Positions 1-41,630 of a DNA stretch of 64,000 nucleotides are shown in pieces. The DNA lies in contig JAIEMT010000003.1 of NCBI GenBank assembly GCA_019751945.1, forward strand, positions 34,993 through 98,992. Reading direction: 5' to 3'. This stretch comes from a bacterium (lineage in GTDB: Bacteria > Bdellovibrionota > UBA1018). Under the pieces are notes generated by a model. It was not told the DNA's origin, made no database searches, and worked only from the letters and a program-made list of their open reading frames with translations. The translations under genes and the position numbers were made by a program. Positions within the stretch are counted from its first letter, which is position 1, and each line of letters starts with the position of its first letter.

Positions 1-73
1 AGACAACAATACAGGTACTTTTTAAAGTATACCTAAAACCGAGGGTTTGTTGCACAGCATTAAATAAAAATTT

Positions 74-319
74 CTACTGTGCCGAACTATTTGACAGGTG
101 TTCAGCTTGTATAGCCTCGAGGTAGGCAATCATTGCAGCTCGCAGCTGTTCGAGCGTCAAACTCTCCTGATCGTGGCCAGAATTCTTGACTATTTGCTGG
201 AGTTCTTCCTGTAATTCCTGGCTCGGAAGCCCCGTCAAAGCAATCACTTCATTGATTAAGTCTGCACCCGAATTCTCGGGCGAGTTGGAGATATCCGTTC
301 TCCCTTTGTCCCCGCTCAT
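74..319 (-). CDS. small hypothetical protein, acidic and Gln/Glu-rich
   Basis: 81-aa ORF with no recognisable motif; convergent with nothing obvious, upstream of EamA gene. Confidence 0.35.
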   Translation of the reverse strand: MSGDKGRTDISNSPENSGADLINEVIALTGLPSQELQEELQQIVKNSGHDQESLTLEQLRAAMIAYLEAIQAEHLSNSSAQ

Positions 320-402
320 AGCGCCTCTCTCTGCCTTTTCCCCAAAAGCCTTTTAGCTCCCCAAATCCCCAAGGAGCACTATGAGGTCAAGTATAGAAAT
401 GT

Positions 403-1323
403 CTAAATTGGAACCGCAAGCTTTTTATTCAACTGAACGCTCACTCCGAGAAGAATTAACGCCGCCCCAATAAACTGGATGGGAGTCATTAAATCCCCCA
501 GGACCAAGTAGCCAATGAGCGATCCCACCACAGGCTGAATAAAGAGGGTCACCGTGATGCTGGCAATCGAGATTCGGGTCAGGGCAACCATCCAAAACAG
601 GTAGCAAATCCCAGTGCCCAAAACCCCGTTCCAGACCGAGCCAGCGGCGCTCTTCCAGGTAAACTGATGAAGTGGCGGCAGCCCTGGACCCAGCAGAGTA
701 ATGATAGTGAGAAACACCCCTCCAAAGAACAGGGCGGTACCGAAAATCTCGGTCGGCTCATTCCGTTTTAAGGCGCCCCGAGCCAAAAGGGAATAAGCCG
801 CCTCTCCCAAGAGCGAGCAGAAAATGAGGAGGTTCCCCATCAAGTGGGGATCAAAACCGGCTCTGATCTTGGCGGGGGTCAGTCCGCTCAAAAGCGAAAA
901 ACCGACGATGGAGAGGGAGAAAGAAACCACGTGGTTCCATTGCATCCGATCCCGAAAAATCACCCAGGCCAGCACCACCGTAATGATGGGTTCCATAGCA
1001 ATGATGAGAGCGTTGTCGGTGGCGCGCGAAGTGGAGAGCCCCTTGAGTTGAAGGATACCCACTCCACAAAAAGTGATGGCGCCGATGGCAATCACGGTGG
1101 CCCAGTCTTTCGGATGTTTTGATTTTAAAAAAGGAGGGCTCTTCGCTCGCTTTGTGACTATCAAGAAAACGGTCAGCATCACGTAGAAAGCAAATGCCGA
1201 AACATAGCGAAGCCACGCCCCTTGAATCGGTGTGAAATCTTGCAGCACCCAAACCCCACCGACTGGCGCTGCAGACCAAATGATGTTGCAGAGAATGAGG
1301 CCGAGTAGAATCGAGAGTGGCAT
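403..1323 (-). CDS. EamA/DMT-family drug/metabolite transporter, about 10 TM helices
   Basis: 306-aa polytopic membrane protein with two EamA-like halves and Gly-rich helices. Confidence 0.7.
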   Translation of the reverse strand: MPLSILLGLILCNIIWSAAPVGGVWVLQDFTPIQGAWLRYVSAFAFYVMLTVFLIVTKRAKSPPFLKSKHPKDWATVIAIGAITFCGVGILQLKGLSTSRATDNALIIAMEPIITVVLAWVIFRDRMQWNHVVSFSLSIVGFSLLSGLTPAKIRAGFDPHLMGNLLIFCSLLGEAAYSLLARGALKRNEPTEIFGTALFFGGVFLTIITLLGPGLPPLHQFTWKSAAGSVWNGVLGTGICYLFWMVALTRISIASITVTLFIQPVVGSLIGYLVLGDLMTPIQFIGAALILLGVSVQLNKKLAVPI

Positions 1324-1382
1324 TCCTCTTGGCTAGCACGATATAATGGTGGTCACCACCTTTTGGTAGAGGACCGCGTCAC

Positions 1383-1907
1383 ATGAGCAAAAAAAATTCA
1401 GCCCCAGGGAATTCGGCGCCCGGGAAAAAAGTCAGCGAATCTGTCGTCCAAATGACCGAACTGGTTCTTCCTTCCGACACCAATACTTTGGGAACGATCT
1501 TCGGGGGCAAGATCATGGCGTGGATCGATATTGCTGCTGCGATTGCAGCTGGTCGGCACGCTCGCAGAGTGGTGGTCACGGCTTCGATCGACGCGCTTCA
1601 TTTCGTCAGTGCGGTGAAGATGGGTCACTTTGTTCACATTCAAGCTTCGGTGAACTTTGCAGGACGGACTTCCATGGAAGTCGGCGTGCGTGTGGACGCA
1701 GAAAATCCTCTCACCGGCAAGCGGCAGCACACGGCGACTGCTTATACCACCTTTGTGGCGCTAGATGAAAACGGACAACCCACTCCAGTTCCTCCTCTCA
1801 ACCCTGAAACGCCTGAAGAAAAACGACGCTTCGCCGAAGCGCAAAAGCGCCGCCAATCCCGAATGCGTTTAGCTGAAGAACTCAAGGCCACCCGTAACGA
1901 CGACTGA
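1383..1907 (+). CDS. acyl-CoA thioesterase, hotdog fold, YciA-like
   Basis: Motif ELVLPSDTNTLGTIFGGKIMAWID typical of YciA/Acot7 hotdog thioesterases; basic C-terminal tail. Confidence 0.65.
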   Translation: MSKKNSAPGNSAPGKKVSESVVQMTELVLPSDTNTLGTIFGGKIMAWIDIAAAIAAGRHARRVVVTASIDALHFVSAVKMGHFVHIQASVNFAGRTSMEVGVRVDAENPLTGKRQHTATAYTTFVALDENGQPTPVPPLNPETPEEKRRFAEAQKRRQSRMRLAEELKATRNDD

Positions 1908-2518
1908 TGGAACTCTATTTTTTTCGCCACGGCGAAACCGACTGGAACGTTGAAGGTAGAATTCAAGGACACGTCGACGTTCCTTTGAACGACAAAGGCC
2001 GCGGACAAGCGCGCTCCCTCGTACCGATTTTAAAAAAACTGGGAATTCAGGCGCTGCTCAGTTCCGACCTTTGTCGCGCGAGTGAGACTGCCGAGCTCAT
2101 TGCAAAACCCCTAGGACTACCCGTTCATGTTTCAGAAGGACTGCGCGAAGTTCATTTCGGAAGAATTCAGGGACTCAATCGCGAAGAGATGGCGACACAG
2201 TTTGGATTTACCTTCGCTCGCGATGTCATGGCTCGCACTCTTTCCGATGCCGAGCTCGTTCAATATGGAACAGAGACCAGCGAAAAAGTGATCAACCGGG
2301 TGACTCATGCGTTTATCGATTTGTTAGCGAAGCATGGACAGGGGCAATACCAAAAACTGGCAGTCGTCACGCATGGAGGCGTCATTCGCCGCCTCATTAT
2401 ACAAGCCACCAAAGACGATCCGTTTTATTCCGCCATCCCGAATGGGACGCTCTATCCGATGACGTTCTCTTCGACTGAGAAGAAGTTCCAACTCCGAAAT
2501 TTTGTACCCTGGGGCTAG
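1907..2518 (+). CDS. histidine phosphatase family protein (phosphoglycerate mutase-like)
   Basis: N-terminal FFRHGETDWN RHG catalytic motif; start overlaps upstream stop (ATGA), so the two genes are likely coupled. Confidence 0.7.
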   Translation: MELYFFRHGETDWNVEGRIQGHVDVPLNDKGRGQARSLVPILKKLGIQALLSSDLCRASETAELIAKPLGLPVHVSEGLREVHFGRIQGLNREEMATQFGFTFARDVMARTLSDAELVQYGTETSEKVINRVTHAFIDLLAKHGQGQYQKLAVVTHGGVIRRLIIQATKDDPFYSAIPNGTLYPMTFSSTEKKFQLRNFVPWG

Positions 2519-3396
2519 TTACCTCGCTCGAGGTAGGAACGCACTTCCCAGAGATACGGAAACGCGCGCTTCGACGTTGTGGATTTCAAATATTCCGCGC
2601 CGGCTGAACCGCCAGTGCCGCGTCTGAAACCAATCACGCGCTCAACGACACGCACATGATGTTCGCGCCAAAGAGACAGAAACTCGTCAAACTCCACGAG
2701 CGATTCGCTGAGTAGGTAGAGCTCATAGTTTTTGGCCGGGGTTTTGTAGATGGGAAGCAGAGCTTTAATGATGGCTGCCTTCGCCTCTTCGTCGCCTTCC
2801 ACTTCGAGCTTCGAAGCGTTGTTGGGGATGGCGTAGCCCATCTTCTTCAACATCTCGTAGTAATGATGGCGCACATCGGGCTCACCTAGACGCTTCTTCA
2901 ACGCTTCGATCATTTCAGGGCGATCTTTGAAGTATTTCAAAAAGCGCTCGTCGCGCATTCCGGCAACGTATTCCAGCTCGCGAAATTGGAGTGATTGAAA
3001 TCCGCTGGCAGGTTCTAGGCGATAACGGAATTCCATGAAGTCTGCGGGAGTCATGGTTTCGAGAATGTGAATCTGATCCACCAAGAGGCGCATGATGGCT
3101 ACTACGCGCTTCATGAAATGGTGGGCTTGAAGCACTTCCTTTTGATCCATGCACTTGATGGCCGCGCCGATTTCATGCAGCACCAGCTTGAACCAAAGTT
3201 CGTAAGCTTGGTGAATGACGATGAAGAGCAATTCGTCGTGATGGGGCGGATCGGACTGAAGCTTCTGAAGCGTCAGCAGCTCAGGCACCTTCAAGTAATC
3301 ATTATACGTGAGGTGTCCCGGCGTGACCTGAACAAAGGCCTCGGGATTTCCGTGCCCCATGGGGCATCCACCAGTAGACTTCGGTTTCTCTGCCAT
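2515..3396 (-). CDS. kynA: tryptophan 2,3-dioxygenase
   Basis: HHDELLFIVIHQAYELWFKLVLHE matches the conserved TDO haem-pocket region; length 293 aa. Confidence 0.8.
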   Translation of the reverse strand: MAEKPKSTGGCPMGHGNPEAFVQVTPGHLTYNDYLKVPELLTLQKLQSDPPHHDELLFIVIHQAYELWFKLVLHEIGAAIKCMDQKEVLQAHHFMKRVVAIMRLLVDQIHILETMTPADFMEFRYRLEPASGFQSLQFRELEYVAGMRDERFLKYFKDRPEMIEALKKRLGEPDVRHHYYEMLKKMGYAIPNNASKLEVEGDEEAKAAIIKALLPIYKTPAKNYELYLLSESLVEFDEFLSLWREHHVRVVERVIGFRRGTGGSAGAEYLKSTTSKRAFPYLWEVRSYLERGN

Positions 3397-3397
3397 A

Positions 3398-3991
3398 CTA
3401 CTTTCCTATTTGGCTCAAAAGCTGAGCCAAGCTTTGGGCCGAAGAGGCCTCAATATCTTTATGAAGCGAATTTCCGTGCGCATCGATCGTCACTACCACA
3501 GGAAACTTCACTACACGCAATTGCCAAATCGCTTCGGGACTTCCAAACTGTTCTAAGCCGTAAACGTTTTCGACTTCTTGAATCGCTTCGGCCAAAACTT
3601 GGGCAGCACCGCCGACGGCATGGAAGTAAACACAACCAAACTTTTCACAGGCGACGCGAGTCTTTTCGCCCATTCCACCTTTGCCGATCACACCGCGCAC
3701 ACCGAACTTTTCGATGATGCCGGCCTGATACGGTTCTTCACGAGTCGAGGTTGTCGGGCCAGCTGCTGTCACCACCCACTTGCCCTTCTTCTTCATCACC
3801 ACTGGGCCACAGTGATAAATGATGGCGTCTTTCAAACTCACCGGCGGCTCGTTTCCTTCGTGCAGCCACTTATGAACTGCATCTCGCCCCGTGTAGACCA
3901 CGCCTTCGATCTCCACCATGTCACCCACTTTGAGGGCGCGAATCTTGTCTTCCGTAAAAGGTGCTTTGAGCGTCTTCATTAGTAGAGCCAC
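3398..3991 (-). CDS. class I (Fe-S) fumarate/tartrate hydro-lyase beta subunit
   Basis: 197-aa protein matching the FumA/TtdB C-terminal domain (GKGGMG, CGPVVM motifs); overlaps alpha subunit gene by 13 nt. Confidence 0.75.
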   Translation of the reverse strand: MALLMKTLKAPFTEDKIRALKVGDMVEIEGVVYTGRDAVHKWLHEGNEPPVSLKDAIIYHCGPVVMKKKGKWVVTAAGPTTSTREEPYQAGIIEKFGVRGVIGKGGMGEKTRVACEKFGCVYFHAVGGAAQVLAEAIQEVENVYGLEQFGSPEAIWQLRVVKFPVVVTIDAHGNSLHKDIEASSAQSLAQLLSQIGK

Positions 3992-4872
3992 CGTTTAATT
4001 TTGGCGCCGCCGTCGACGATGGCGCCATGTCGTCTGTAGGCCCAGCACATGTACGAGATACTGACGAAGAATGAGGCTGGGAGCCTGTTGAGGACTCCTA
4101 CCTTTACTCCCATCAGCGTCGTCTTACCACCAAATCCCATGGGGCCGATGCCCAGTTGATTGGCTTCGTTCAGGCACTCTTCTTCGAGTTGAGCGAGCAC
4201 GGGATTCGGGTTCTTATCCTTCATTTTTCGAAGAAACTGCTCTTTCGAAAGTGCGTATCCCGTCGCTCGGTCGCCGCCGATGATCACGCCCAACACGCCC
4301 GGCCCACAGCCCTTGCCTTGCGCTTGTTGAACGGCGTCCAAAATACATTTCTTCACCCCTTTGATGTCACGACCTGCGCCCACGCGTCCGTCCGGTAAAC
4401 TGTACTGAGCGCCGACGTTTTCACATCCGCCGCCCTTCAGAATCAGACGAATATCGAATTCATTTTTCTTCCAGGGATGCAAGTGAAGCGACGGAGTCCC
4501 CGGACCGACGTTCGTACCGTTATTCTTTCCGGTCAAACTATCCACACTGTTTTGACGAAGGTAGCCCTTCTTAGTCGCAGCAACGACGGCCTTCTTGATC
4601 ACTTTTTCAAGCGCTTCTGCTTCGAGCTTCATCGGGTAATGAACGTAGAAAAGAATACTGCCCGTATCTTGACAAAGCGGCTGGCTCTTCGTTTTAGCTA
4701 GGTCGATGTTCTTGCAAATAATCCCCATCGCGTAGTCGCCGCGCGACTCTGGGGCTTCGACCCTCTTTCCTGACTGAATTGCCTCGATAACGTCTTTCGG
4801 GAGTTCGGCCGAGGTCTTCCGAATCACCTCGATAAAGGTGTCGACTAACTTCTTTTGGAGAGCTGCATTCAT
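3979..4872 (-). CDS. class I (Fe-S) fumarate/tartrate hydro-lyase alpha subunit
   Basis: 297-aa protein with the LCQDTGS Fe-S cluster-binding motif of FumA/TtdA N-terminal domain. Confidence 0.75.
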   Translation of the reverse strand: MNAALQKKLVDTFIEVIRKTSAELPKDVIEAIQSGKRVEAPESRGDYAMGIICKNIDLAKTKSQPLCQDTGSILFYVHYPMKLEAEALEKVIKKAVVAATKKGYLRQNSVDSLTGKNNGTNVGPGTPSLHLHPWKKNEFDIRLILKGGGCENVGAQYSLPDGRVGAGRDIKGVKKCILDAVQQAQGKGCGPGVLGVIIGGDRATGYALSKEQFLRKMKDKNPNPVLAQLEEECLNEANQLGIGPMGFGGKTTLMGVKVGVLNRLPASFFVSISYMCWAYRRHGAIVDGGAKIKRWLY

Positions 4873-4902
4873 GCGAATACCTTAACGTGATATGAACAGA
4901 AT

Positions 4903-5364
4903 GTGAATCAGGACCCCAAGAACGCCCCGTTTTTTGTGGATAACGAAGTCATCACCCTCAATCGGGAAGGGATTTGGATTGCCGACGGGATGGAAATCAC
5001 CCACGAACCCACGCGCAAACTCTTTGCCCGAAGCCTGAAGAAAGACGGAGACGGCTATTACCTCCACATCGGACGCGAAACCAAACGCATCGGCGTGGAA
5101 GACACGGCTTACTTTGTCGAAGGCTTAGAAGGTTCAGCTAAGACCGGTTATGAAATCCGTCTGAGCGATCAATCTCAAGAGCGGCTCGATGTGAAATCCT
5201 TAAAATACAAACCCGGGCGCTTGTGCTGCCGAATCAAATCGGGCTCGGAAGAAGCCAAGTTTCTGCGGGTGACCTACCACCAGATTCTTCGGGATTTAAA
5301 AGAGGACGGCGAAGGGTATTTCTTGGTTCTCGAAAATCAGCGAGTACAATTAGCTAAGAAATGA
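4903..5364 (+). CDS. DUF1285-like conserved hypothetical protein
   Basis: 153 aa; PFFVDNE...GIWIADG...EITHE pattern recalled from the DUF1285 family. Confidence 0.45.
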   Translation: MNQDPKNAPFFVDNEVITLNREGIWIADGMEITHEPTRKLFARSLKKDGDGYYLHIGRETKRIGVEDTAYFVEGLEGSAKTGYEIRLSDQSQERLDVKSLKYKPGRLCCRIKSGSEEAKFLRVTYHQILRDLKEDGEGYFLVLENQRVQLAKK

Positions 5365-5577
5365 CCCCTTTCTAAAACTCTACCTACTGAGCTGGAGTGC
5401 GCTCGTCGTCGCTCTCGCGCTGACCTTTCGTCATAGAAAATCGCTGAGCTGTTTCCTTGATACTCTCCTTTTTGTTTCAGTAATGCTTAGGTTTTGCCTA
5501 TCACACTCATTGCTATTCCCAATTATCTCCTATGCCTGATTCGAGTTACTTGAATCTTAGAAAAGGGGATAACGAAA

Positions 5578-6120
5578 ATGAAAAAACTTTTAGGAATTTT
5601 AGTGATGGTGACAAGTCTCAATGCTGAGGCGATGGAGTTCAATCTAGGTGGAGGAGGTCCAACTCCGGAAAGTGAAACGGCCGTGCTTTCAGTTCGGGAT
5701 GAAGGCGCTGTGACGCGCATTCGAGTGATGGTTTCGAATGGACGTTGCGCTGAATTTCGAACCGAGCTCTGCGGAGTTGCCCGAGTGCAGATGGTAGAGT
5801 TTGTAACGCCATCGAAAACGTGCACGATTCTCAAAAGCACTTTATTGACCTGCTACATGGACTCCTTCCATCCTCAGTCTCAGTTCACGGTGTTCTTGGC
5901 TGACGGATCTCAGCTTCAACCGGGCGAACTCTCAGTCTACCTCGCCGTCGGAGAAACCAAGCGGGTTGAAAACGGTATAGCGAGAGATTCCATCTTCATC
6001 GACTTCAGCGCAATGGGTCATCGCGCGGACGGTCTCGATACACTGATCGAAGAGCATTACGGTTCGAGCGCCTTCTTGATTTCACACCTGCAGGAAGTTT
6101 CGAAATCGCTTTTTAAATAA
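5578..6120 (+). CDS. secreted hypothetical protein (signal peptide)
   Basis: N-terminal MKKLLGILVMVTSLNAEA signal peptide; RBS AAAAGGGGA upstream; no known domain. Confidence 0.45.
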   Translation: MKKLLGILVMVTSLNAEAMEFNLGGGGPTPESETAVLSVRDEGAVTRIRVMVSNGRCAEFRTELCGVARVQMVEFVTPSKTCTILKSTLLTCYMDSFHPQSQFTVFLADGSQLQPGELSVYLAVGETKRVENGIARDSIFIDFSAMGHRADGLDTLIEEHYGSSAFLISHLQEVSKSLFK

Positions 6121-6155
6121 AACTGAGTTAGCGCATGCCTCGGGGTATTTGGGGC

Positions 6156-6731
6156 ATGCGCTATTTCACTTTAGTTTGTTTATTTTTTTCTGGCTGCCAG
6201 TTGGTGGAGCTCGACAAGGGAAAGTTTTATCGAAGCCCGCAACCCTCTCGAAAAGACTTGGAACGCGCCATCACCTTCTTAAAAATTAAAACGGTGATCA
6301 ACCTGCGCGGCGCGAACCCCGGCGAAATCTGGTACGACGAAGAAAAAGCGGTCACAGATTTTCGAGGGGTAAAGCTAATCGACATTCCCATGTCCGCTGG
6401 AAGATTGCCCCACCGCAAAGACCTCCTTGCCCTACTCGACGCCTATCAAACTGCAGAACGCCCCATCTTGGTACACTGCCAAGCAGGGGTAGACCGAACC
6501 GGGGAAGCCAGCGCCATTTACGCCATGCTTTATCTGGGGATTTCGAAGGACTTAGCGCTGGAAATGCTCACTCCACAATTTGGATATATTGAGGAGATTT
6601 CAGCAGCTCGCGCAAAAATGTATTTTATTCGCGACCTTTGGCAGGGGGAAGAATGGGCTCGCACACAATACGATCCCTGCAAACAGAACTACCGCTACTA
6701 CGATAAAAACAATTACGCCGAGTGCAAGTGA
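6156..6731 (+). CDS. secreted lipoprotein with dual-specificity/tyrosine phosphatase fold
   Basis: Lipobox FFSGC followed by Cys-X5-Arg P-loop VHCQAGVDRTG; alternative upstream ATG at 6135. Confidence 0.65.
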   Translation: MRYFTLVCLFFSGCQLVELDKGKFYRSPQPSRKDLERAITFLKIKTVINLRGANPGEIWYDEEKAVTDFRGVKLIDIPMSAGRLPHRKDLLALLDAYQTAERPILVHCQAGVDRTGEASAIYAMLYLGISKDLALEMLTPQFGYIEEISAARAKMYFIRDLWQGEEWARTQYDPCKQNYRYYDKNNYAECK

Positions 6732-6792
6732 TCAAAACCTAGACAGTATTTTAGACAATAAATCCTATAAGCAGTTTTAATTCTTCTTAACC

Positions 6793-7530
6793 TTGGCTTG
6801 GGTTTTGCTTTCTCTGTGCTCGAGTATGAACCTCACGTCGGTCCTCTCGGATATTGTCCTCGCTGCATTGGTGGCCTCACCCTTCATCCTCATTTTTGTC
6901 TTGGGTGAGAAAAACATGCTTGCGCGCGCTGGAAGAATCGAACGCGTACGCCAATCGAAGTACACTACAAAGGATCTCCTATTTGGCTCAAGGTACACAG
7001 CTTCCACAGTTTTCATTTGGTTTCTCTTCGATAGACTAGATAGCATTTTTACTCAGCAAGGCTGGAGCCTGGTTTACCGTGATAACACCCAACATGGCTG
7101 GATCTATTTCACCCTTTCGTTTTTACTTTTTTTTCTAGTCTACGATCTTTGGACCTTCTCCTTTCATTTTTCTCTCCACCACTTCAAGTGCTTGAGAAAA
7201 TTCCATAGCGTGCATCACCAAAACGAGACCTCCCCCATGGGTGCGTTTGCTTTCCATCCTGTAGAAGCGGTTTTATTTCGCCTTCCTATTACTTTGGCAA
7301 AGCTGTTTGTCCCGTTACCTTATTCTGTCTTTGTTTGGTTCTACATTATTGTGATCGCCCATACCGTCTACATCCACATGGGCTACGACTTCAAAGGCTT
7401 GAGCACAAAGTTCATCCTGACCTCACGGTTTCATTCCCTTCATCATCGAAACCCTCATCACAACTTTGGTTTGTTTTTCGGAATCTGGGACACCTTTTTT
7501 GGGACAGCTACGGGAGTGAATAAGAAATGA
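6793..7530 (+). CDS. fatty acid hydroxylase / sterol desaturase superfamily membrane protein
   Basis: His boxes HSVHHQ and HSLHHRNPHHNFG in a 4-TM protein. Confidence 0.7.
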   Translation: MAWVLLSLCSSMNLTSVLSDIVLAALVASPFILIFVLGEKNMLARAGRIERVRQSKYTTKDLLFGSRYTASTVFIWFLFDRLDSIFTQQGWSLVYRDNTQHGWIYFTLSFLLFFLVYDLWTFSFHFSLHHFKCLRKFHSVHHQNETSPMGAFAFHPVEAVLFRLPITLAKLFVPLPYSVFVWFYIIVIAHTVYIHMGYDFKGLSTKFILTSRFHSLHHRNPHHNFGLFFGIWDTFFGTATGVNKK

Positions 7531-8558
7531 AGTCACTCGCCCTAAGAAATAGTCCACATATCTCTCTTTTAAAGCTGGTAATGGCCATCGCCGTAGTACT
7601 TGCTCACGTTCATTGCACTTATGCTTCGGCGGTAACAGAAATCTGGCCCCTCAAAGACCCATTCGATACAAGTGCCGTACTGAATGCCACGATCCTTCTG
7701 CACTATATTTTAATGCCCCTATTTTTCTTCATAAGTGGGCTGACTGCTAGAAATTCTTTCAATAAGAAAACTCCGGAAAGATTTTGGAAGGATGGCGCCA
7801 CCCGACTAGCTGTCCCTCTTGTTTTAGGTCTGCTCATCCTCGAACCCTGGGCGGCGTGGGGATTTTCAGTTCAAAGCGGTGGAAACATTCTAGCGAGTTT
7901 CAACCTGGGGCACCTTTGGTATCTTTATTTTCTAATTCTATTTTACGTGCTGGCTCCTTTAGTGCTTAAGAAAGTCAGTACTTCATTTCTGGCAGATCCT
8001 TTCAAAGGACCGATTACTTTTGCAGCAGCCTTTTTGATTTTTCTGAATGTGAAAAAGGGAATCATTCCAACATCCCAAGGTGCCATCCCAGATCTTTCCG
8101 CATTTTTAGTATACGGATTACTTTTTACTTACGGCTGGGGATTTGAAGGTAAGAAAACAAGTCGCGATACGACCTACGTGCTCTTAGGTCTCCTGAGCTG
8201 GGTTGTAACCATGATTCTTTTCTTGAACTCGGATCAGAATGCGAGCGTGGTTATTCAACTTGCAGCCTCTGCATTTGCCGGCGTGACAGTATGGTTCTTC
8301 GTCACCGGCTTTTTTTCACTTTTCACTTCAATCAAAAACAAAAAAATTCTGGCACTCAGTCGATTTCACCGATTGAGCTACCCCATCTATCTTCTCCATT
8401 TTCCGTTCGTGATTTGGATTCCCATTTTGATTGCTGAACCTTTGCAGGGATTTCTACTCACCAAGATTTTCATTACATTTTTCGCAAGCCTGTTATTTTC
8501 AGTGTTTCTGGGCAAGGCCCTCACACCTCGGTCAGGACTTTTGTCCAGACTTTCTTAA
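7527..8558 (+). CDS. acyltransferase family 3-like polytopic membrane protein
   Basis: 343 aa, about 10 TM helices, conserved early His (AHVHC); ATGA overlap with upstream hydroxylase gene. Confidence 0.45.
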   Translation: MKSLALRNSPHISLLKLVMAIAVVLAHVHCTYASAVTEIWPLKDPFDTSAVLNATILLHYILMPLFFFISGLTARNSFNKKTPERFWKDGATRLAVPLVLGLLILEPWAAWGFSVQSGGNILASFNLGHLWYLYFLILFYVLAPLVLKKVSTSFLADPFKGPITFAAAFLIFLNVKKGIIPTSQGAIPDLSAFLVYGLLFTYGWGFEGKKTSRDTTYVLLGLLSWVVTMILFLNSDQNASVVIQLAASAFAGVTVWFFVTGFFSLFTSIKNKKILALSRFHRLSYPIYLLHFPFVIWIPILIAEPLQGFLLTKIFITFFASLLFSVFLGKALTPRSGLLSRLS

Positions 8559-8640
8559 ATTCTAGTCCAGATTGAAATTGACTCCGACGCCCGGCGTTGC
8601 TACCTCGGTCTCGTTCAAATTTTAAACGAGGAGATTAGAG

Positions 8641-10161
8641 ATGAACGTTTTCAAAATCGGTATGGTTCTGATGTTCTTGGCCGGTACCCCTGCTTTCGCG
8701 AGCGGCGGAGGAAAAACAGGGGGAGGCTTACCCAAACACCCCTCCAAATTCATAACCACCCACATTCTTCCGGATCAGACTCTGGTACAGACTCGAGAGC
8801 TCCTGGCAAAAATGTCAGCTAATTTCCCATCTCTGGCTGCGACTTTCAACCTCATGCTCGAAAGGTTCCTTGACGCGAATCAGGCCAAATATCTCATTCT
8901 CCGCTATGAAGGTGTGAACACCGAAGATTGGGCACACTACTACGCAAGTCCTGAGCTTGGGCCCAAGGGTCTCCCCCTCGAAGCACAACTCTGGTTCTGG
9001 GAAGACTTCGAAACGCTCCCAATAACCAACGACAGCCCCGATCAACCCAGCCAAGTGAAAGCGGTTTTACACGAACTGATTCATGTGGGCTTCACCGGTG
9101 AAAACGAACTGAAAACCGCAATGCTGGCTGAGAAGCTTTATCTCCTCTCAAGAGGGGTAGATGAAAGTCTTGAGACTCAGAAATTTATTCAAAGCCTGCT
9201 GTTTGAAAAAATCTCAGCTATTAACGACAGGAGCTACGGAGTCGGAAAATATGAAAAAGACTACAATCCCGACTGGTTTCCGATGATTCAGTCGTTCTAC
9301 TTTGCGAGCCAAGGCCTCAGGTGTGAGGACCTGATTCTCACTGATGAAATGGTCATTGCCGGGAGAACCTACCGCGCTCCGCTATTGTCGGACCTTCTCA
9401 AAGAAAAGGTCAGTATTATCAGGGACGACTTTTTCTCAAACCTTCGCAATCACTGTGTGAGACAGGTCGGTGACGGAATTTATTTTTCGAGGTTACAACT
9501 TCACACATCCTCTAAAGGCGGCACTGAGCTATGGCCTTCTATCGACCACCCTTTATTTTGGGACCCTGCAATTCAATACGCCTACCTCACCAATGGAGGT
9601 AGAAAGAGTATCCATATTTCTCTAGGGGGAGATAATAACGAACTCTATTTAGGAGTCGGCGGGAGCGGGAGCTCTGTAAGCGAACAGCCATTAAAAAGAA
9701 GAGAAAAACAACAGTCTTCTCGGCCTCTTTATGACCGAATTGAAGGCTACTCGAACTGGACAAACCGGATGAAGGAGCTTTACGGCCCGGGAGTACTGAA
9801 TAAACTTTCAATTCACCTTCTGCCATACAGCGCATTGCTGCGATATTGGGCCGATAAAAATCTAGAGGGCAAGGGCTCTGTTACAATTTCCTCAGGCTCC
9901 TCGTTTCCTGGGAACATCAGAGTCGAAACTACACATGGAGAATGGAGCCCTGCAGTCACCTGCTCTTACGAGTTTCGCATACTGACCTGTACTTTTCCTA
10001 AAGTAGGAAGGAAACTCTGGTTTCCCAAGGAAGCTAAAACAGCAACGGTACGTCTAGCCGATCTAGAAACCGATCCCGGTATCGACCCACCCTATTACGT
10101 AAACGTAGCCGATCTAGAAACCGATCCCGGTATCGACCCACCCTATTACGTAAACGAATGA
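8641..10161 (+). CDS. secreted protein with HExxH motif and C-terminal tandem 17-aa repeat
   Basis: Signal peptide MNVFKIGMVLMFLAGTPAFA; HELIH at about aa 140; C-terminus ADLETDPGIDPPYYVNV duplicated exactly. Confidence 0.5.
   Translation: MNVFKIGMVLMFLAGTPAFASGGGKTGGGLPKHPSKFITTHILPDQTLVQTRELLAKMSANFPSLAATFNLMLERFLDANQAKYLILRYEGVNTEDWAHYYASPELGPKGLPLEAQLWFWEDFETLPITNDSPDQPSQVKAVLHELIHVGFTGENELKTAMLAEKLYLLSRGVDESLETQKFIQSLLFEKISAINDRSYGVGKYEKDYNPDWFPMIQSFYFASQGLRCEDLILTDEMVIAGRTYRAPLLSDLLKEKVSIIRDDFFSNLRNHCVRQVGDGIYFSRLQLHTSSKGGTELWPSIDHPLFWDPAIQYAYLTNGGRKSIHISLGGDNNELYLGVGGSGSSVSEQPLKRREKQQSSRPLYDRIEGYSNWTNRMKELYGPGVLNKLSIHLLPYSALLRYWADKNLEGKGSVTISSGSSFPGNIRVETTHGEWSPAVTCSYEFRILTCTFPKVGRKLWFPKEAKTATVRLADLETDPGIDPPYYVNVADLETDPGIDPPYYVNE
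10056..10157 (+). repeat. perfect 51-bp tandem duplication (2 units) at the 3' end of the 8641-10161 CDS
   Basis: Units 10056-10106 and 10107-10157 identical except the last base. Confidence 0.9.
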
Positions 10162-11000
10162 TACCCAACACTCCCTCCCTCAAGTGCGACATCTTCCGAT
10201 ACTCGGATTACCGGTCGTACTTGAGGGACTTCATCAGTTTGAAGAAGGCTTCCGGAAAAGGCTTCAGCGTTCGACAATTCTGTCTGAAGGCAGGGATTAC
10301 CACCGAAAACTATCTCAATCGAATCCTCCGCAAACAAAGAAACATCGGCCCTAGAACTGCGGAGCGGCTGATCGATGTGATGAAGTTGAACCGCGAGGAA
10401 AAGAATTTCTTTATCACCTTGGTGCTCAAAGAAAGCGCAAAGACGGTGGAGTCCAAGAGTTTTTACCTGGAAAAAATTAGCGCCGTACAACGGCGCAAAA
10501 AAATCCCGGATCGAATCACTGACAACTCAATGATGCGGAACTGGTACACGGTCGTGATCTGGGAATTAGCGACGTGCAAGGACTTCGATCTCACCATCGA
10601 GAATATTATTCGCTCTCTCAGGAAACCGATCTCCCCCGCGCAGGCCAGAGAGGCGCTAAAATACCTCGTGGAAAAAGGGTTTTTGAAACAGGTCGACGGT
10701 AGGTGGCGGCAAAGCGAGAAGGCCTACACGACTACGAATGAAATCGAAGACCCCCTAGTTCAGATGAATCACAAAATGGCTTTCGAATCCGCAATCGAAT
10801 CGATCAACGGCCCCTTGGCTGAAAGGGGAATGTATGGCCTCACCATCGCCATCAATCGCAATCGGATTCCGACCCTCAAGAAACACCTAGACCGCTTCAT
10901 CGACGAACTCAATGCCGAGTTTGCCTACGACAAAAGTTCGGATGTCGTACTGAGGGCTGGCGCCTTTTGTTTCATTCAAGCAGAAACACCAAAATGCTGA
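10158..11000 (+). CDS. TIGR02147-family protein (HTH-containing paralogous family of Bdellovibrio/Fibrobacter)
   Basis: N-terminal YSDYRSYLRDF...GFSVRQFCLKAGI...NYLNRILRKQRN pattern; ATG overlaps upstream stop (ATGA). Confidence 0.5.
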   Translation: MIPNTPSLKCDIFRYSDYRSYLRDFISLKKASGKGFSVRQFCLKAGITTENYLNRILRKQRNIGPRTAERLIDVMKLNREEKNFFITLVLKESAKTVESKSFYLEKISAVQRRKKIPDRITDNSMMRNWYTVVIWELATCKDFDLTIENIIRSLRKPISPAQAREALKYLVEKGFLKQVDGRWRQSEKAYTTTNEIEDPLVQMNHKMAFESAIESINGPLAERGMYGLTIAINRNRIPTLKKHLDRFIDELNAEFAYDKSSDVVLRAGAFCFIQAETPKC

Positions 11001-11001
11001 A

Positions 11002-12024
11002 CTAACCGTGACCGCCCATTAAGAAGGGCTCAGCCATAAATTTATAGTCGCGAAGAGATGCAGTGGCTCCGAAGAACTTGCGGGCTTCCGTCCAGAGTTC
11101 TTCGGGTTGAATTTCACTGAAAACTTTTTTGCGAAACTCTGCCGATCCTGGAAAACCGGCTGAGTACCAAGCCAGAAACTTTCGGACGTGAATGACGGCG
11201 GAGCGCTCATTATAGTCTTCGCTCAGGAACGCGCGCTGACGGTCCATTAAATCGACGTAGCGCTGGGGCTCGGGCTTCGTAAAGCTGCGACCCTCCCAGA
11301 GAGCGTATGCTTGTTCAAAGATAAAGGGATTTCGAAGCGCGCCTCGGCCGATCATCACCGCATCGACGCCGTAGGTTTTCATTTTCTGAACGGCGACTTC
11401 GGGAGTGGTGATATCGCCGTTTCCAATAATCGGGAGCGGACTTTTCGCCTTCACGTCCCCGATGAAATCCCAGTCCGCCAAACCGCTGTAACCTTGTGCG
11501 CGCGTGCGGCCATGAATGGCTACCCAGCGAACACCGGCATCGGCTGCGGCTTCCACCACAGCGAGGGCATTCTTGGTCGACTCATCCCAGCCCGTTCGAA
11601 TTTTAATGGTCACCGGAATTTTTACGGACTCGACCATCATTTTTAACGTCTTGCCAAGTTCAGAGGGATTACGACACATCGCTGAGCCGGCGCCCTTCTT
11701 CACTACTTTTGGAACAGGACAGCCCAAATTCAAATCGACAAAGTCGGCACCCAAACGCTCCACATGCTGGCAGGCTTTGACTAAGAATTCAGGAACCTCG
11801 CCAAAAATCTGGAGGCCCACGGTGCGTTCGTCATCTTTGAAGCGGAGGAGCTCGAGAGTTTTCGGACCACCGTATTCAATGCCATTGGCAGAAACGAGTT
11901 CCGATACGACCATCGAGCTATTCAATCCCCGCATGAGTCGACGAAACGGGGAATTGGTAATTCCCGCCATCGGCGCCAGAATGAAAGGATGATCGAGTTT
12001 GAAAGGGCCTAGTACTACAGCCAT
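11002..12024 (-). CDS. dusB: tRNA-dihydrouridine synthase
   Basis: FILAPMAGITNSPFRRL and GADFVDLNLGCP DUS motifs; 340 aa with C-terminal helical extension. Confidence 0.8.
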   Translation of the reverse strand: MAVVLGPFKLDHPFILAPMAGITNSPFRRLMRGLNSSMVVSELVSANGIEYGGPKTLELLRFKDDERTVGLQIFGEVPEFLVKACQHVERLGADFVDLNLGCPVPKVVKKGAGSAMCRNPSELGKTLKMMVESVKIPVTIKIRTGWDESTKNALAVVEAAADAGVRWVAIHGRTRAQGYSGLADWDFIGDVKAKSPLPIIGNGDITTPEVAVQKMKTYGVDAVMIGRGALRNPFIFEQAYALWEGRSFTKPEPQRYVDLMDRQRAFLSEDYNERSAVIHVRKFLAWYSAGFPGSAEFRKKVFSEIQPEELWTEARKFFGATASLRDYKFMAEPFLMGGHG

Positions 12025-12030
12025 GTCACA

Positions 12031-13350
12031 TTACTTCTTGAGCGCTTCGATTTCCTCACGCAGCTTGGGAACATCCTTGGTCAGGACTTCGCAGCCGGTG
12101 TCGGTGACGAGCACGTCATCTTCAATTCGAATGCCGATGTTGCGGTACTCTTCGGGGACTTCCTTGTCATACGACTGGAAGTAGAGTCCCGGCTCCACAG
12201 TGAAAATCATTCCGGCTTGAAGCGGACGCGATTCCCCAGCTGGATTTCGATACAAGCCGACATCATGAACGTCCATCCCCAACCAATGGCCAGTGCCATG
12301 AGGATAGAAACGCTTGAAGGCATCGGTCTTGAGTAAATCCGGAACCTTGCCCTTGAGAAGCCCGAGACCCACCAAGCCTTCCGTGAGTATTTCACAAGCC
12401 TTCATGTGCAGGTCGCCTAAGCGCGCTCCTGGACGAACCGACTTGATCACTTCCATTTGAGCTTTCAAAACTAAGTCATAGATAGTGGCTTGAGGTTTGG
12501 TAAAAGTTTTTCCGATTGGGAAAGTGCGGGTGATGTCTGCCGTATAGTAATTGTATTCGCCGCCCGCATCGATCAGAAGAAGTTCACCGTCACGAAGTTC
12601 GTCGTTGTTGGAACGATAGTGCAAGCAGCAAGCATTTTTTCCACCGGCCACGATGCTGTCGTAACCCAGACGCTTACAACCGTTTTTGCGGAAGTAGTAG
12701 TCGATCATGGCTTCGACTTCGCTCTCATTCATTCCGGGCTTCACTTCTCGAATGATTTGCTTGTGAGCCAATGCGGTGATCTGGCAAGCCTTGCGCTGAA
12801 ACTCGACTTCTTCAGCTGATTTGAACAAGCGCAACTCACCTAAAACTTCGTTGGGATCGAGGATGGGAAGAAGTCCGCGACCGCTACGACCCATGCTCTT
12901 TCTAGCCGTGTCGAGTCCCTTAAGAATGGTGCGGTCCATGTCTTCATTCATGCCGACGCGGTAGAAAACTTTCTGCGCGCTCATTAGAAAATCGGGCATG
13001 CGCTTTTCGAAGTCTTCGATTGGAAAAACTTCGTCGAATCCAAAAATCTTTTTTGCACCTTCAACGCCGTATCGTTCGCCATCCCAAAGTTCCCGATCCG
13101 GATCACGCTGACGAACAAACATCACGGATTTATAGGAACCACCCTTCATGGGACAGAGCATCAACACGGACTCGGGCTCTTCGAATCCCGTGAGGTAGAA
13201 AAGGTTGCTCTCCTGGCGGAAGGGGTAAGTCACATCCGGATTGCGCAAAGTCTCCGGATTGGCAGGGAATATGAACGCCGCCTCCGGATTGGACTTCATA
13301 GCTTTATTTCTTCTATCCTTAAAAAACTTTGGCACGCTGGTCAGCAACAT
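12031..13350 (-). CDS. pepP: Xaa-Pro aminopeptidase (M24B)
   Basis: YPFRQESNLFYLTGFEEPESVLML N-terminal domain and C-terminal HGTGHWLGMDVHD pita-bread motifs; AGGTGG RBS before ATG at 13350. Confidence 0.8.
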   Translation of the reverse strand: MLLTSVPKFFKDRRNKAMKSNPEAAFIFPANPETLRNPDVTYPFRQESNLFYLTGFEEPESVLMLCPMKGGSYKSVMFVRQRDPDRELWDGERYGVEGAKKIFGFDEVFPIEDFEKRMPDFLMSAQKVFYRVGMNEDMDRTILKGLDTARKSMGRSGRGLLPILDPNEVLGELRLFKSAEEVEFQRKACQITALAHKQIIREVKPGMNESEVEAMIDYYFRKNGCKRLGYDSIVAGGKNACCLHYRSNNDELRDGELLLIDAGGEYNYYTADITRTFPIGKTFTKPQATIYDLVLKAQMEVIKSVRPGARLGDLHMKACEILTEGLVGLGLLKGKVPDLLKTDAFKRFYPHGTGHWLGMDVHDVGLYRNPAGESRPLQAGMIFTVEPGLYFQSYDKEVPEEYRNIGIRIEDDVLVTDTGCEVLTKDVPKLREEIEALKK

Positions 13351-40077: not shown

Positions 40078-41533
40078 TCAGTTGAAATTTGAAGTTGAGT
40101 GGTTCACTCTTTCGGCAACTACGCTGTCAGAGAAACTCAACCGGTTGGATCGTAAAATCCGGCCAGACAAGGAACCACTCAACATGTCTATCCAAATATA
40201 TTTAGCCAATAAAAAGCGCAAGCCCCGTCGTCCAGTCGTCGCGATTAGTTGCCAGGAACTGGAGGCGGGACAAGTCCCAGGGTTCGAGCCTGGCGTGATG
40301 ATCGACTCCCAGCACTTGCTCATCTCGACATTGCTACCGCCAGCGGTGAAGGAGTTTCTCGCTCAATGCGAGAGGGAGGTCGCGAGCATCTGCGGAAAGC
40401 CTCACGCTCGTGAGGAGGGACTACTGTCGCGCTGGGGCACCCAGGCGGGATCGATCTATCTGGGAGGCCAGAAAGTCGCAGTGCAAAAGCCGCGCGTCAG
40501 GGGTAGCGAGGGCGAGCACACGCTCTCGACCTACGAGAGGTTTCAAGACCCCGCTCTTTTTGATCAGCAGGTATTCCAGGAGGGGATCCGCCGCGTCAGT
40601 CAGCGCGATTACGAGAAGGGGCTTCCGAAGATTGCTGCGAGCTTTGGAATGAGTAAAAGCAAAGTTTCAAAAAGCTGGGTAAAAGCAACGGAAAATCAGC
40701 TCGAAAAACTTCGTACTCGAAGCCTCAAAGAATTTGGAATCATAGCCGTCTTCATCGACGGCAAACGTTTCTCCAAACTCGGCGCCATCGTCGCGCTGGG
40801 AGTGGGAGCGGATGGGCGAAAACATGTGATCGGGCTTTATCAGAGTTCGACTGAGAACTCGGCTGCCTGCCGGGAACTTCTGGACGATCTGGAGCGGCGT
40901 GGATTGCCCGAAAGTGAGTTGCTGTTTGTCGTCGACGGCGGCAGCGGCTTGAACAAAGCCTTGGATGAAAAATATCAGTTGCACGATCCAAAGCAGAGCC
41001 GGGCCGTGCGAGTCCGTTGCCATATTCACAAATGGCGAAATATCACGGACGTGCTGACGCCGAAACAGAGCGAAGAGGCGTCAGGATTGTTCTGGGCCAT
41101 TCGGGAGGCCAGAGATCTGACTCAAGCCCTGGAGTGTGCGGCCTCACTGGAGCAGCTGCTCGGGAAGTTTAACGCCTCTGCGTTAGCCAGCTTTTTAGAG
41201 GCCAAGAATGACCTCCTGGCGCTTCATCGTCTGGGGCTCTCGGCTGAACTCCGGAAATTTTTCTCTACAACAAACCCGATCGAGAGTTTAAATTCTCTGC
41301 TCGAAGAGGACCTGAGGCGAGTGAAACGTTGGCAGGACTCGGCGCACTTCCAGCGCTGGCTTGCTACGGCATGTTTGCAGAACGAAAAGCGAATGCGACG
41401 GATCCGGGGCTTCCGATCTCTGCCAGCCGTCGTTGTGAGACTACAGTCGTTGTGTAATCAGGAAAAATCCGTTGACAAAGATACTCGAGCTGCGTGATGA
41501 ACTGCGAGCCACTCAACCGAGAGTTTCAACTGA
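40078..41533 (+). mobile_element. IS256-family (Mutator-type) insertion sequence, about 1.46 kb
   Basis: About 28-bp imperfect terminal inverted repeats TCAGTTGAAAYTY...GTTGAGTGG at 40078-40105 and 41506-41533 (rc); GC content higher than flanks; no clear 8-bp TSD. Confidence 0.65.
40082..41497 (+). CDS. IS256-family transposase
   Basis: C-terminal TTNPIESLNSLLEEDLRRVKRW matches the Mutator/IS256 TTNxIExxNxxhRRR signature; the ORF-track start lies within IRL, so the true start is probably internal (e.g. around 40184). Confidence 0.7.
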   Translation: MKFEVEWFTLSATTLSEKLNRLDRKIRPDKEPLNMSIQIYLANKKRKPRRPVVAISCQELEAGQVPGFEPGVMIDSQHLLISTLLPPAVKEFLAQCEREVASICGKPHAREEGLLSRWGTQAGSIYLGGQKVAVQKPRVRGSEGEHTLSTYERFQDPALFDQQVFQEGIRRVSQRDYEKGLPKIAASFGMSKSKVSKSWVKATENQLEKLRTRSLKEFGIIAVFIDGKRFSKLGAIVALGVGADGRKHVIGLYQSSTENSAACRELLDDLERRGLPESELLFVVDGGSGLNKALDEKYQLHDPKQSRAVRVRCHIHKWRNITDVLTPKQSEEASGLFWAIREARDLTQALECAASLEQLLGKFNASALASFLEAKNDLLALHRLGLSAELRKFFSTTNPIESLNSLLEEDLRRVKRWQDSAHFQRWLATACLQNEKRMRRIRGFRSLPAVVVRLQSLCNQEKSVDKDTRAA

Positions 41534-41630
41534 GTGAAGGACAAGGTCTGTGAATTAATTTTATTTTCAACAGCCCTATAGGAGCCAATATACTTAAGAC
41601 TCGTTTTAAAGCCGCTTATTTTTCTGGGTT

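Follow-up and report, generated by a model that had tools for sequence, protein, structure and literature searches.

A 64,000-nucleotide (nt) stretch of DNA from an uncultured member of Bdellovibrionota (GenBank assembly GCA_019751945.1, contig JAIEMT010000003.1, positions 34,993 to 98,992; hereafter, the window) contains a gene for a 506-amino acid (aa) protein with an HExxH motif, followed immediately by a gene of the TIGR02147/DUF4423 family. Our comparative analysis suggests, with a probability of roughly 0.6, that the two genes make up a self-contained operon, one encoding an exported zincin peptidase and the other its own TIGR02147 regulator, which is co-translated with the peptidase and controls it. 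The 506-aa protein appears to be the founding member here of an unnamed zincin-like family with a distinctive HExxH-x7-E signature that is missed by Pfam, NCBIfam, PHROG and Protein Data Bank (PDB) profiles and is so far represented in uncultured bacteria only. Exported zincins with a regulator encoded alongside them are a familiar arrangement; the novelty lies in the family itself, in its obligatory partnership with TIGR02147/DUF4423 and in the operator-like DNA element shared by these loci. For TIGR02147/DUF4423, these findings provide the first concrete, testable context, namely, an invariable partner gene and a candidate DNA target.

The features of the module that are discussed below are as follows (positions are those of the window).

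8529-8584, + strand: conserved upstream element of about 56 nt, candidate operator plus -35 box (alignment of seven loci and nhmmer)
8535-8546, + strand: palindrome GGACTTTTGTCC (GGAC-N4-GTCC)
8565-8568, + strand: third GTCC half-site
8578-8582, + strand: TTGAC, candidate -35 box
8601-8606, + strand: weak -10-like hexamer TACCTC
8628-8633, + strand: Shine-Dalgarno-like GAGGAG, 7 nt 5' of the ATG, as read from the sequence
8641-10161, + strand: gene for the putatively exported HExxH protein, 506 aa (NCBI entry MBY0469707.1, 'hypothetical protein')
8641-8703, + strand: predicted Sec signal peptide, aa 1-21, with cleavage after AFA
8734-9495, + strand: predicted zincin-like catalytic domain, aa 32-285
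9070-9084, + strand: HELIH, residues 144-148
9070-9108, + strand: putative metal site HELIHVGFTGENE (H144, E145, H148, E156)
10158-11000, + strand: gene for the TIGR02147/DUF4423 protein, 280 aa, with a probable XRE-type helix-turn-helix (HTH) at aa ~27-80 and the DUF4423 region at aa 125-258

At each of the 11 loci that encode a homologue of the HExxH protein, a TIGR02147/DUF4423 gene lies directly downstream on the same strand (the window, the loci of P0005, P0006, P0007, P0008, P0010, P0011, P0012, P0013 and P0017, and a new member in contig L019). The homologues at these loci show about 17-37% identity, the distance between the two genes ranges from -37 to +160 nt, with a 4-nt overlap recurring in L013, and one metagenome-assembled genome (MAG), GCA_964507905.1, carries two zincin-TIGR02147 pairs. 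The genes around the pair differ from locus to locus. The suggestion of a co-functioning pair, made in the first-pass annotation of the window, is thus strongly supported by the persistence of the partner in 11 of 11 loci amid unrelated neighborhoods. The named relatives come from MAGs of Bacteriovoracaceae, Oligoflexia and 'Deltaproteobacteria bacterium GWA2_38_16', so that the lineage carrying the module is probably Bdellovibrionota. In the window, the neighbors of the pair are housekeeping genes (Dus, M24 peptidase, ThyX). In L008, L011, L014 and L016, the pair is flanked by genes of toxin-antitoxin or abortive infection type (HicA/HTH, AbiEi, PIN/RHH, PhdYeFM/PIN, BrnT/CopG, MazE), which suggests variable, island-like regions in these other genomes.

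The conservation at these loci extends to the DNA upstream of the pair. The window element reads TCA GGAC TTTT GTCC AGACTTTCTTAAATTCTA GTCC AGATTGAAA TTGAC, followed after 17 nt by TAnnTn. The palindrome occurs only once in the 64 kilobases (kb), and the third GTCC lies about two helical turns downstream of it, beside the -35 box; the 5' part of the element falls within the last codons of the upstream acyltransferase open reading frame (ORF; stop codon at 8556-8558). The -10-like hexamer is located 17 nt after TTGACT, and the aligned loci all retain its T, A and fifth-position T. A generic sigma-70 promoter scan did not call this conserved promoter. The element is present at all 8 loci with sufficient upstream DNA (the window, L007, L008, L011, L012, L014/L018, L016 and L019), the sequence available in L006, L013 and L030 being too short on that side. 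In L016, it takes the variant form AGAC-TATA-GTCT, and in L019, it has GTCT half-sites and lies ahead of an additional gene for an exported protein, the first gene of that operon. When the window sequence was left out of the nhmmer profile, 8529-8584 was still recovered with an E-value of 6.3e-11, the next best match in the 64 kb having an E-value of 0.3. That this DNA is conserved among loci whose proteins are ~17-30% identical, and that it moves with the pair, suggests a site bound by a protein.

The obvious candidate for the protein that would bind this site is the co-encoded TIGR02147 protein, and the combination of a weak -10 box with half-sites upstream of the promoter would suit an activator. 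The regulators at loci with GTCC sites share a helix of the form ...NY[LF][LN]R[IV]L[RT]xQ[RK]N; at the two loci with GTCT sites only (L016 and L019), this helix contains K, E or K-rich variants, and L012 is mixed. The pattern hints that the half-sites and the putative recognition helix co-vary. Between the putative -10 box and the ribosome-binding site, the window also contains a 21-base-pair (bp) near-perfect palindrome, CTCGTTCAAA-T-TTTAAACGAG (8610-8630). We considered and rejected a 5' untranslated region hairpin that masks the ribosome-binding site: the predicted RNA fold is no better than those of shuffled sequences (z -0.17), and the palindrome was not seen at the other loci. It could be a lineage-specific operator or a chance occurrence.

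The assignment of the downstream gene to TIGR02147, likewise proposed in the first-pass annotation, holds. The NCBIfam hidden Markov model TIGR02147 ('Fsuc_second') matches residues 11-266 over profile positions 3-261 of 272 with 171.8 bits (E 2e-50), more than threefold above the curated cut-off of 50, and Pfam DUF4423 (PF14394) matches residues 125-258 with 86.9 bits against a gathering threshold of 30. DUF4423 is also matched by all 10 aligned partner proteins, and the identical protein in NCBI is named 'TIGR02147 family protein' (MBY0469708.1). The accompanying claim of an expansion in Bdellovibrio and Fibrobacter could be followed up in part: the NCBIfam entry bears the name 'Fsuc_second' and is of the paralog kind, Bd3700 is a DUF4423 protein, and MAGs of Bacteriovoracaceae and Oligoflexia contain relatives. 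The TIGR02147 protein lacks a signal peptide. Its segment aa 27-80, probably an XRE-type HTH, gives weak matches to the XRE-type PDB chain 3kxa (E ~1) and to SinR (hhalign E 0.022).

The coupling of the two genes is evident in the ATGA overlap at 10158-10161, where the stop codon TGA of the 506-aa gene (10159-10161) shares two bases with the start codon ATG of its partner (10158-10160), as previously annotated. The JGI annotation of L004 (6590-7351) places the start of the TIGR02147 gene 27 codons later, yielding a 253-aa protein without ATGA coupling. The longer, overlapping 280-aa start is the correct one: the TIGR02147 profile already matches from residue 11 of that form onwards, and conservation extends to the N-terminal DYRxYL motif. 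A full-text literature search recovered no published function for TIGR02147/DUF4423 and neither the obligatory pairing with an exported zincin nor the shared upstream element. The sole mention found concerns Bd3700: a proteome table for Bdellovibrio bacteriovorus includes it among the proteins that are upregulated when the bacterium grows within prey.

The 506-aa protein has no match in Pfam, NCBIfam, PHROG, PADLOC or PDB sequences; the best hits to PADLOC and PHROG profiles were non-significant (E 0.016, SoFic, and E 0.005). PDB sequence searches with profiles of both families, the zincins and their TIGR02147 partners, were negative, and tblastn detected no paralog of either gene elsewhere in the window. 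The N-terminus of the 506-aa protein, MNVFK-IGMVLMFLAG-TPAFA, with SGGG following the predicted cleavage site, shows on inspection the n/h/c layout and the A-x-A site typical of a Sec signal peptide. Directly after it, the family alignment reveals the mature N-terminal motif GGGxxTG[DN]G[YF]P (aa 22-32, window 8704-8736), in which G23 and G29 are invariant and G27 and P31 nearly so.

Homologs of this protein are rare. A word-indexed search of 5.8 billion proteins, whether with the single sequence or with a profile, returned only the near-identical allele P0001. Exhaustive HMMER searching of 1.84 billion cluster representatives added 14 distant relatives (E 3.5e-36 to 3e-5), which are 24-37% identical over the matched stretches and align mainly over residues ~10-330. 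All ten relatives that were looked up are metagenome or MAG proteins, and 9 of the 10 form single-member clusters. A scan of GTDB genomes with a narrower family alignment produced no confirmed relative, and the window's species, or at least its HExxH gene, is apparently absent from the scanned collection. One hit, P0009 (E 1.4e-10), was set aside as spurious or convergent: it is a 1337-aa multicystatin with seven repeats, its score is probably inflated by repetition, and each repeat weakly matches aa 202-245 of the window protein. This segment (window 9244-9375, ...FYFASQGLRCEDLILTDEMVIAGRTYR) weakly recalls the helix and QVVAG hairpin of a cystatin domain; no cystatin family of Pfam matches the window protein.

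In the alignment of 14 sequences, the window protein and 13 relatives, the invariant residues are G23, G29, P63, L126, H144, E145, H148, E156, C228, D262 and C272, so all four residues of the putative metal site are among them. The HExxH motif is therefore no chance pentapeptide, and HExxH-x7-E forms the core that the family shares; the conserved cysteine pair C228/C272 would fit an exported protein. AlphaFold2 yielded a usable model only with this alignment (the predicted local distance difference test score, pLDDT, is 34 for the single sequence). With it, residues 32-285 are modeled at pLDDT ~90, roughly 75-96 per 10-residue block: three beta-strands come first, then the helix bearing HExxH (aa 138-152), then another helix, aa 156-170, with E156 at its start. 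The HELIH motif noticed in the first pass is thus not only present but invariant among the homologs and situated on a helix of a confidently modeled zincin-like domain. Conserved in all members and carried, in the model, on a helix preceded by a small beta-sheet, HExxH conforms to the pattern of the zincin superfamily. The best structural matches of the modeled domain are zincin metallopeptidases, with secreted M35 enzymes the nearest, followed by minigluzincins, BlaR1, Wss1, Pra1, GtgA, matrix metalloproteinases and other zincins. Judging from the model, the protein would be zincin-like with M35 as its nearest structural neighbor, would belong to no described family, and could be expected to bind zinc and to be catalytically active.

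The individual zincin groups compare with the window protein as follows. The metzincin signature is HExxHxxGxxH followed by a Met-turn, and in gluzincins the third zinc ligand is a Glu located on a downstream 'glutamate helix'. In the window protein, HELIHVGFTGE lacks the third His that a metzincin would have; the invariant E156 does open the next helix, yet it lies only 8 residues after H148. In structural alignments, the M35 enzymes of MEROPS (deuterolysin, 1eb6; Grifola peptidyl-Lys metalloendopeptidase, 1g12/1ge6; AsaP1, 2x3a) are only 11-13% identical to the window protein. The M35-defining GTxDxxYG is absent from it: HExxH is followed by VGFTGENELKT, and the family consensus HELxHIxxTxxxExxT (IxxTxxxExxT after HExxH) has Glu in place of Asp. 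Pfam Aspzincin_M35 gave non-significant hits (E 0.13) in 2 of the 14 members, and hits to WLM were likewise non-significant. Furthermore, the ~220-residue C-terminal half of the window protein has no counterpart in M35, and M35 is mostly fungal whereas the family described here is bacterial. The zinc ligands of the Grifola enzyme are His117, His121 and Asp130 (PMC3268031). Its acidic third ligand is located 9 residues past the second His, compared with 8 for E156. The minigluzincins (selecase, 4qhf; proabylysin, 4jiu; projannalysin, 4jix), Wss1/WLM and SprT are ~100-130 residues long and cytoplasmic or archaeal, and have no significant sequence relationship to the window protein.

Taken together in an operon model, the module would be compact and have three parts. 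The first would be a sigma-70-like promoter with a weak -10 box, preceded by the GTCC half-sites. The second, a gene, would give rise to a Sec-exported, disulfide-containing protein with an N-terminal zincin fold and an HExxH-x7-E metal site, most likely an extracytoplasmic zinc peptidase. The third, a translationally coupled gene, would yield a cytoplasmic TIGR02147 protein, comprising an XRE-like HTH and DUF4423, which most likely governs expression of the operon, and with it of its own gene, by binding to the upstream half-sites. The features of the sequence, the conservation within the family, the predicted fold, the constant pairing of the genes and the conserved upstream DNA are observations; that the first protein is exported, binds zinc and acts as a peptidase, and that the TIGR02147 protein binds DNA as an activator or a repressor, is inferred. 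Should the regulator-operator link hold, it would open a route to studying how predatory bacteria time their individual secreted hydrolases.

Several observations weigh against this model. The signal peptide of the 506-aa protein was called by eye only. The third metal ligand and the peptidase activity depend on a model built from only 14 sequences, which covers the N-terminal domain and leaves the C-terminal half (aa 290-506) outside its scope, and Foldseek found no significant match for it in the PDB (best E 0.77). For the TIGR02147 protein, Pfam HTH_3 (aa 34-80) reaches 16.9 bits against a threshold of 23 (E 0.0068), and only 2 of the 10 partner proteins match HTH_3. The half-site variants track the putative recognition helix only loosely, and the correlation is confounded by phylogeny. 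A different, global regulator could act at the upstream element, with the pairing itself real and TIGR02147 having other targets or a role that does not involve DNA. The sub-threshold HTH matches behind the proposed DNA binding, the looseness of the correlation between half-sites and helix, and the fact that uniqueness of the element was scanned over only 64 kb of the genome all leave room for such an arrangement. We nevertheless consider it unlikely, given that the element moves with the pair through unrelated neighborhoods at protein identities of ~17-30%, that it is unique in the window, and that local control is the simplest explanation for tight translational coupling with a regulator-type gene at all 11 loci.

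Two further alternatives concern the role of the HExxH protein. A two-gene unit of an HExxH protein and an HTH protein resembles BlaR1-BlaI, MecR1-MecI and ImmA(IrrE)-ImmR, and the pair might be a protease-repressor switch of the BlaR1-BlaI or ImmA/IrrE-ImmR type, whereby the HExxH protein would cleave its HTH partner and turn genes on. In those systems, however, the protease domain faces the cytoplasm, where it cleaves the repressor, whereas the protein described here appears to be exported: the signal-peptide-like segment with its A-x-A site and the invariant C228 and C272 would place its bulk outside the cytoplasm, no further membrane segment would bring the zincin domain inside, and the TIGR02147 protein is itself devoid of a signal peptide. 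The best structural matches are to secreted M35 rather than to M56 or M78, and there is no Pfam M56 or M78 hit, so we regard such a switch as very improbable. We also give little credence to a role like that of the fungal Pra1, in which the HExxH protein would bind metal without catalysis or scavenge zinc and TIGR02147 would act as a metal-responsive regulator. The catalytic-type Glu, E145, is invariant in the homolog alignment, as expected of a hydrolase, a metal-transport neighbor occurs at only 1 of the 11 loci, and sister modules contain true peptidases, of the S8 family, in the same position.

These sister modules involve more distant TIGR02147 paralogs, which follow Peptidase_S8 genes in L011, L021 and L025-L028, indicating that the association with exported peptidases is wider than the zincin family. 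The modules, listed below, resemble the zincin pairs in that the TIGR02147 paralog directly follows the exported-peptidase gene or genes on the same strand. They differ in that the peptidase is a subtilase rather than a zincin, a conserved third gene for a 163-166-aa exported protein overlaps the stop codon of the TIGR02147 gene, and the upstream motif is, by eye, different.

L011 6028-9457, - strand; L021 2953-5301; L025-L028: one or two Peptidase_S8 genes, a DUF4423/TIGR02147 gene and a gene for a 163-166-aa exported protein

The upstream regions of the S8 modules share TCTATGAT[CT][CT]AG and GTTAACAAAAA before the ribosome-binding site, as judged by eye. The otherwise unrelated small exported proteins of these modules contain a glycine-rich motif, GGE[IL]GN[GA] (L021 4813-5301; L028 1597-2085). 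When the zincin family was compared with them using hhalign, only a short glycine-rich stretch aligned, with a probability of 2.7%; the pattern GG-x-x-x-G-[DN]-G after the signal peptide, common to the zincins and the small proteins of the S8 cassettes, may be a new sorting or maturation tag. In L030, a second DUF4423 gene (5521-6530, - strand) lies 3.6 kb from the zincin-TIGR02147 pair of P0011, which is another case of clustering of TIGR02147 paralogs; the end of this second gene overlaps by 4 nt the 142-aa ORF that comes after it.

We tentatively extend these observations to the possibility, which we hold to be a minority one, that TIGR02147/DUF4423 proteins are dedicated regulators of self-contained secreted-hydrolase cassettes in bacteria of the Bdellovibrionota (predatory) type. 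Each cassette would consist of its own operator, one or more exported peptidases (HExxH-x7-E zincins or S8 subtilases) and a co-translated regulator; paralogous units would multiply, with the operator half-sites (GTCC/GTCT) drifting together with the recognition helix. If true, this would assign a role in secretome control to a 20-year-old family of no known function.

The least important part of the locus is the tandem repeat that had first drawn attention to it, a clean example of a very young in-frame duplication segregating between near-identical strains. The two length-variable sites of the gene and the three alleles that result are as follows.

9618-9627, + strand: second in-frame length polymorphism; the 494-aa allele has an extra 15 bp, TTCTCTAGGGAGCTA (peptide SLGSY), between 9617 and 9618
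10055-10156, + strand: exact 51-bp tandem duplication (copies 10055-10105 and 10106-10156) encoding the extreme C-terminal tail
506 aa: two repeat copies, no extra 15 bp (window, L004, L005)
494 aa: one repeat copy, extra 15 bp (L001-L003)
489 aa: one repeat copy, no extra 15 bp (L022)

Tandem Repeats Finder reports period 51, 2.0 copies and 100% matches over 10055-10156, and chance identity over 51 bp is negligible. The 17-aa units encoded by the repeat had been described as identical. This is true of the DNA and of 33 of the 34 residues: the repeat is out of register with the codons, so that the units are ADLETDPGIDPPYYVNV and ADLETDPGIDPPYYVNE, the first ending in ...YYVNV and the second in ...YYVNE before the stop, with E rather than V as the last residue. 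The tail is modeled poorly by AlphaFold (pLDDT ~28-38) and is probably disordered. The duplication ends 1 nt before the downstream ATG and does not alter the start codon of the TIGR02147 gene.

Seven further contigs, from metagenomes or MAGs of different samples and made by different assemblers, carry the gene without a single-nucleotide polymorphism (SNP) in it, and these SNP-free copies fall into the three in-frame length alleles. The contigs are at least 99.8% identical over the upstream DNA shared with the window, despite having one or two repeat copies. Such variation in copy number between contigs that are SNP-free in the gene bears out the very recent origin proposed for the duplication, which appears to be an in-frame event caused by replication slippage or unequal crossing-over and is probably near-neutral. 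The 15-bp insertion in the 494-aa allele creates a 10-bp direct repeat of TTCTCTAGGG, with the extra 15 bp between the two TTCTCTAGGG copies, the loss of which would be a textbook slippage deletion. The most economical history would run from 494 aa through a 15-bp deletion to 489 aa and then through the 51-bp duplication to 506 aa, the direction being chosen by economy.

The three length alleles, indels being the sole variation seen in the gene, are what might be expected if the repeat were a contingency locus (phase or antigenic variation) that expands and contracts, or else an assembly artifact. Both possibilities seem remote to us. Only one or two copies occur in the 8 sequences, always in frame, so that a single recent event is sufficient and the active expansion and contraction raised in the first-pass annotation receives no support. 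A 51-bp unit of 17 codons cannot switch the gene off, the downstream start is untouched, and the other indel, of 15 bp between 10-bp direct repeats, arose separately, one ordinary slippage event being enough for each change. As for an artifact, the 102-bp array is shorter than a typical read, and the two-copy form is found in three independent assemblies from different pipelines (NCBI MAG, JGI 3300038435 and ENA ERZ1079237), which argues against it.

Comparison across strains showed 0-2 SNPs in window positions 1-10465, a region that includes the entire HExxH gene. Beginning at 10466, within the TIGR02147 gene, and continuing to ~14355, the divergence of the window and L004 from the other contigs is ~1.3-1.5%; the tract in L005 is shorter (10466-12541). 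The pattern looks like mosaic recombination and is unlinked to the repeat copy number. We discarded the idea that the SNP-rich tract begins at the repeat, because its first SNP lies at 10466 and because L005, with its two copies, has the tract in common with one-copy contigs. Positions 1-127 of L005 correspond to window 41422-41548, ~36 kb from the rest of its alignment, reflecting either a rearrangement in that strain or a chimeric assembly.

Immediately upstream of the module on the same strand, window 6135-8558 encodes a signal-peptide-bearing DSP/PTP-like phosphatase, a fatty-acid hydroxylase family protein and an Acyl_transf_3 membrane acyltransferase, which may constitute a lipid or envelope modification cluster; it is not conserved beside the module in other lineages. 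In L001, the Acyl_transf_3 gene is interrupted by an IS630-type insertion sequence (8273-9918; DDE_3 transposase and HTH domains), inserted at the site corresponding to window 7967-7968 within the acyltransferase ORF 7527-8558. Contig L022 ends exactly at this position, which suggests the same IS630-type insertion there.

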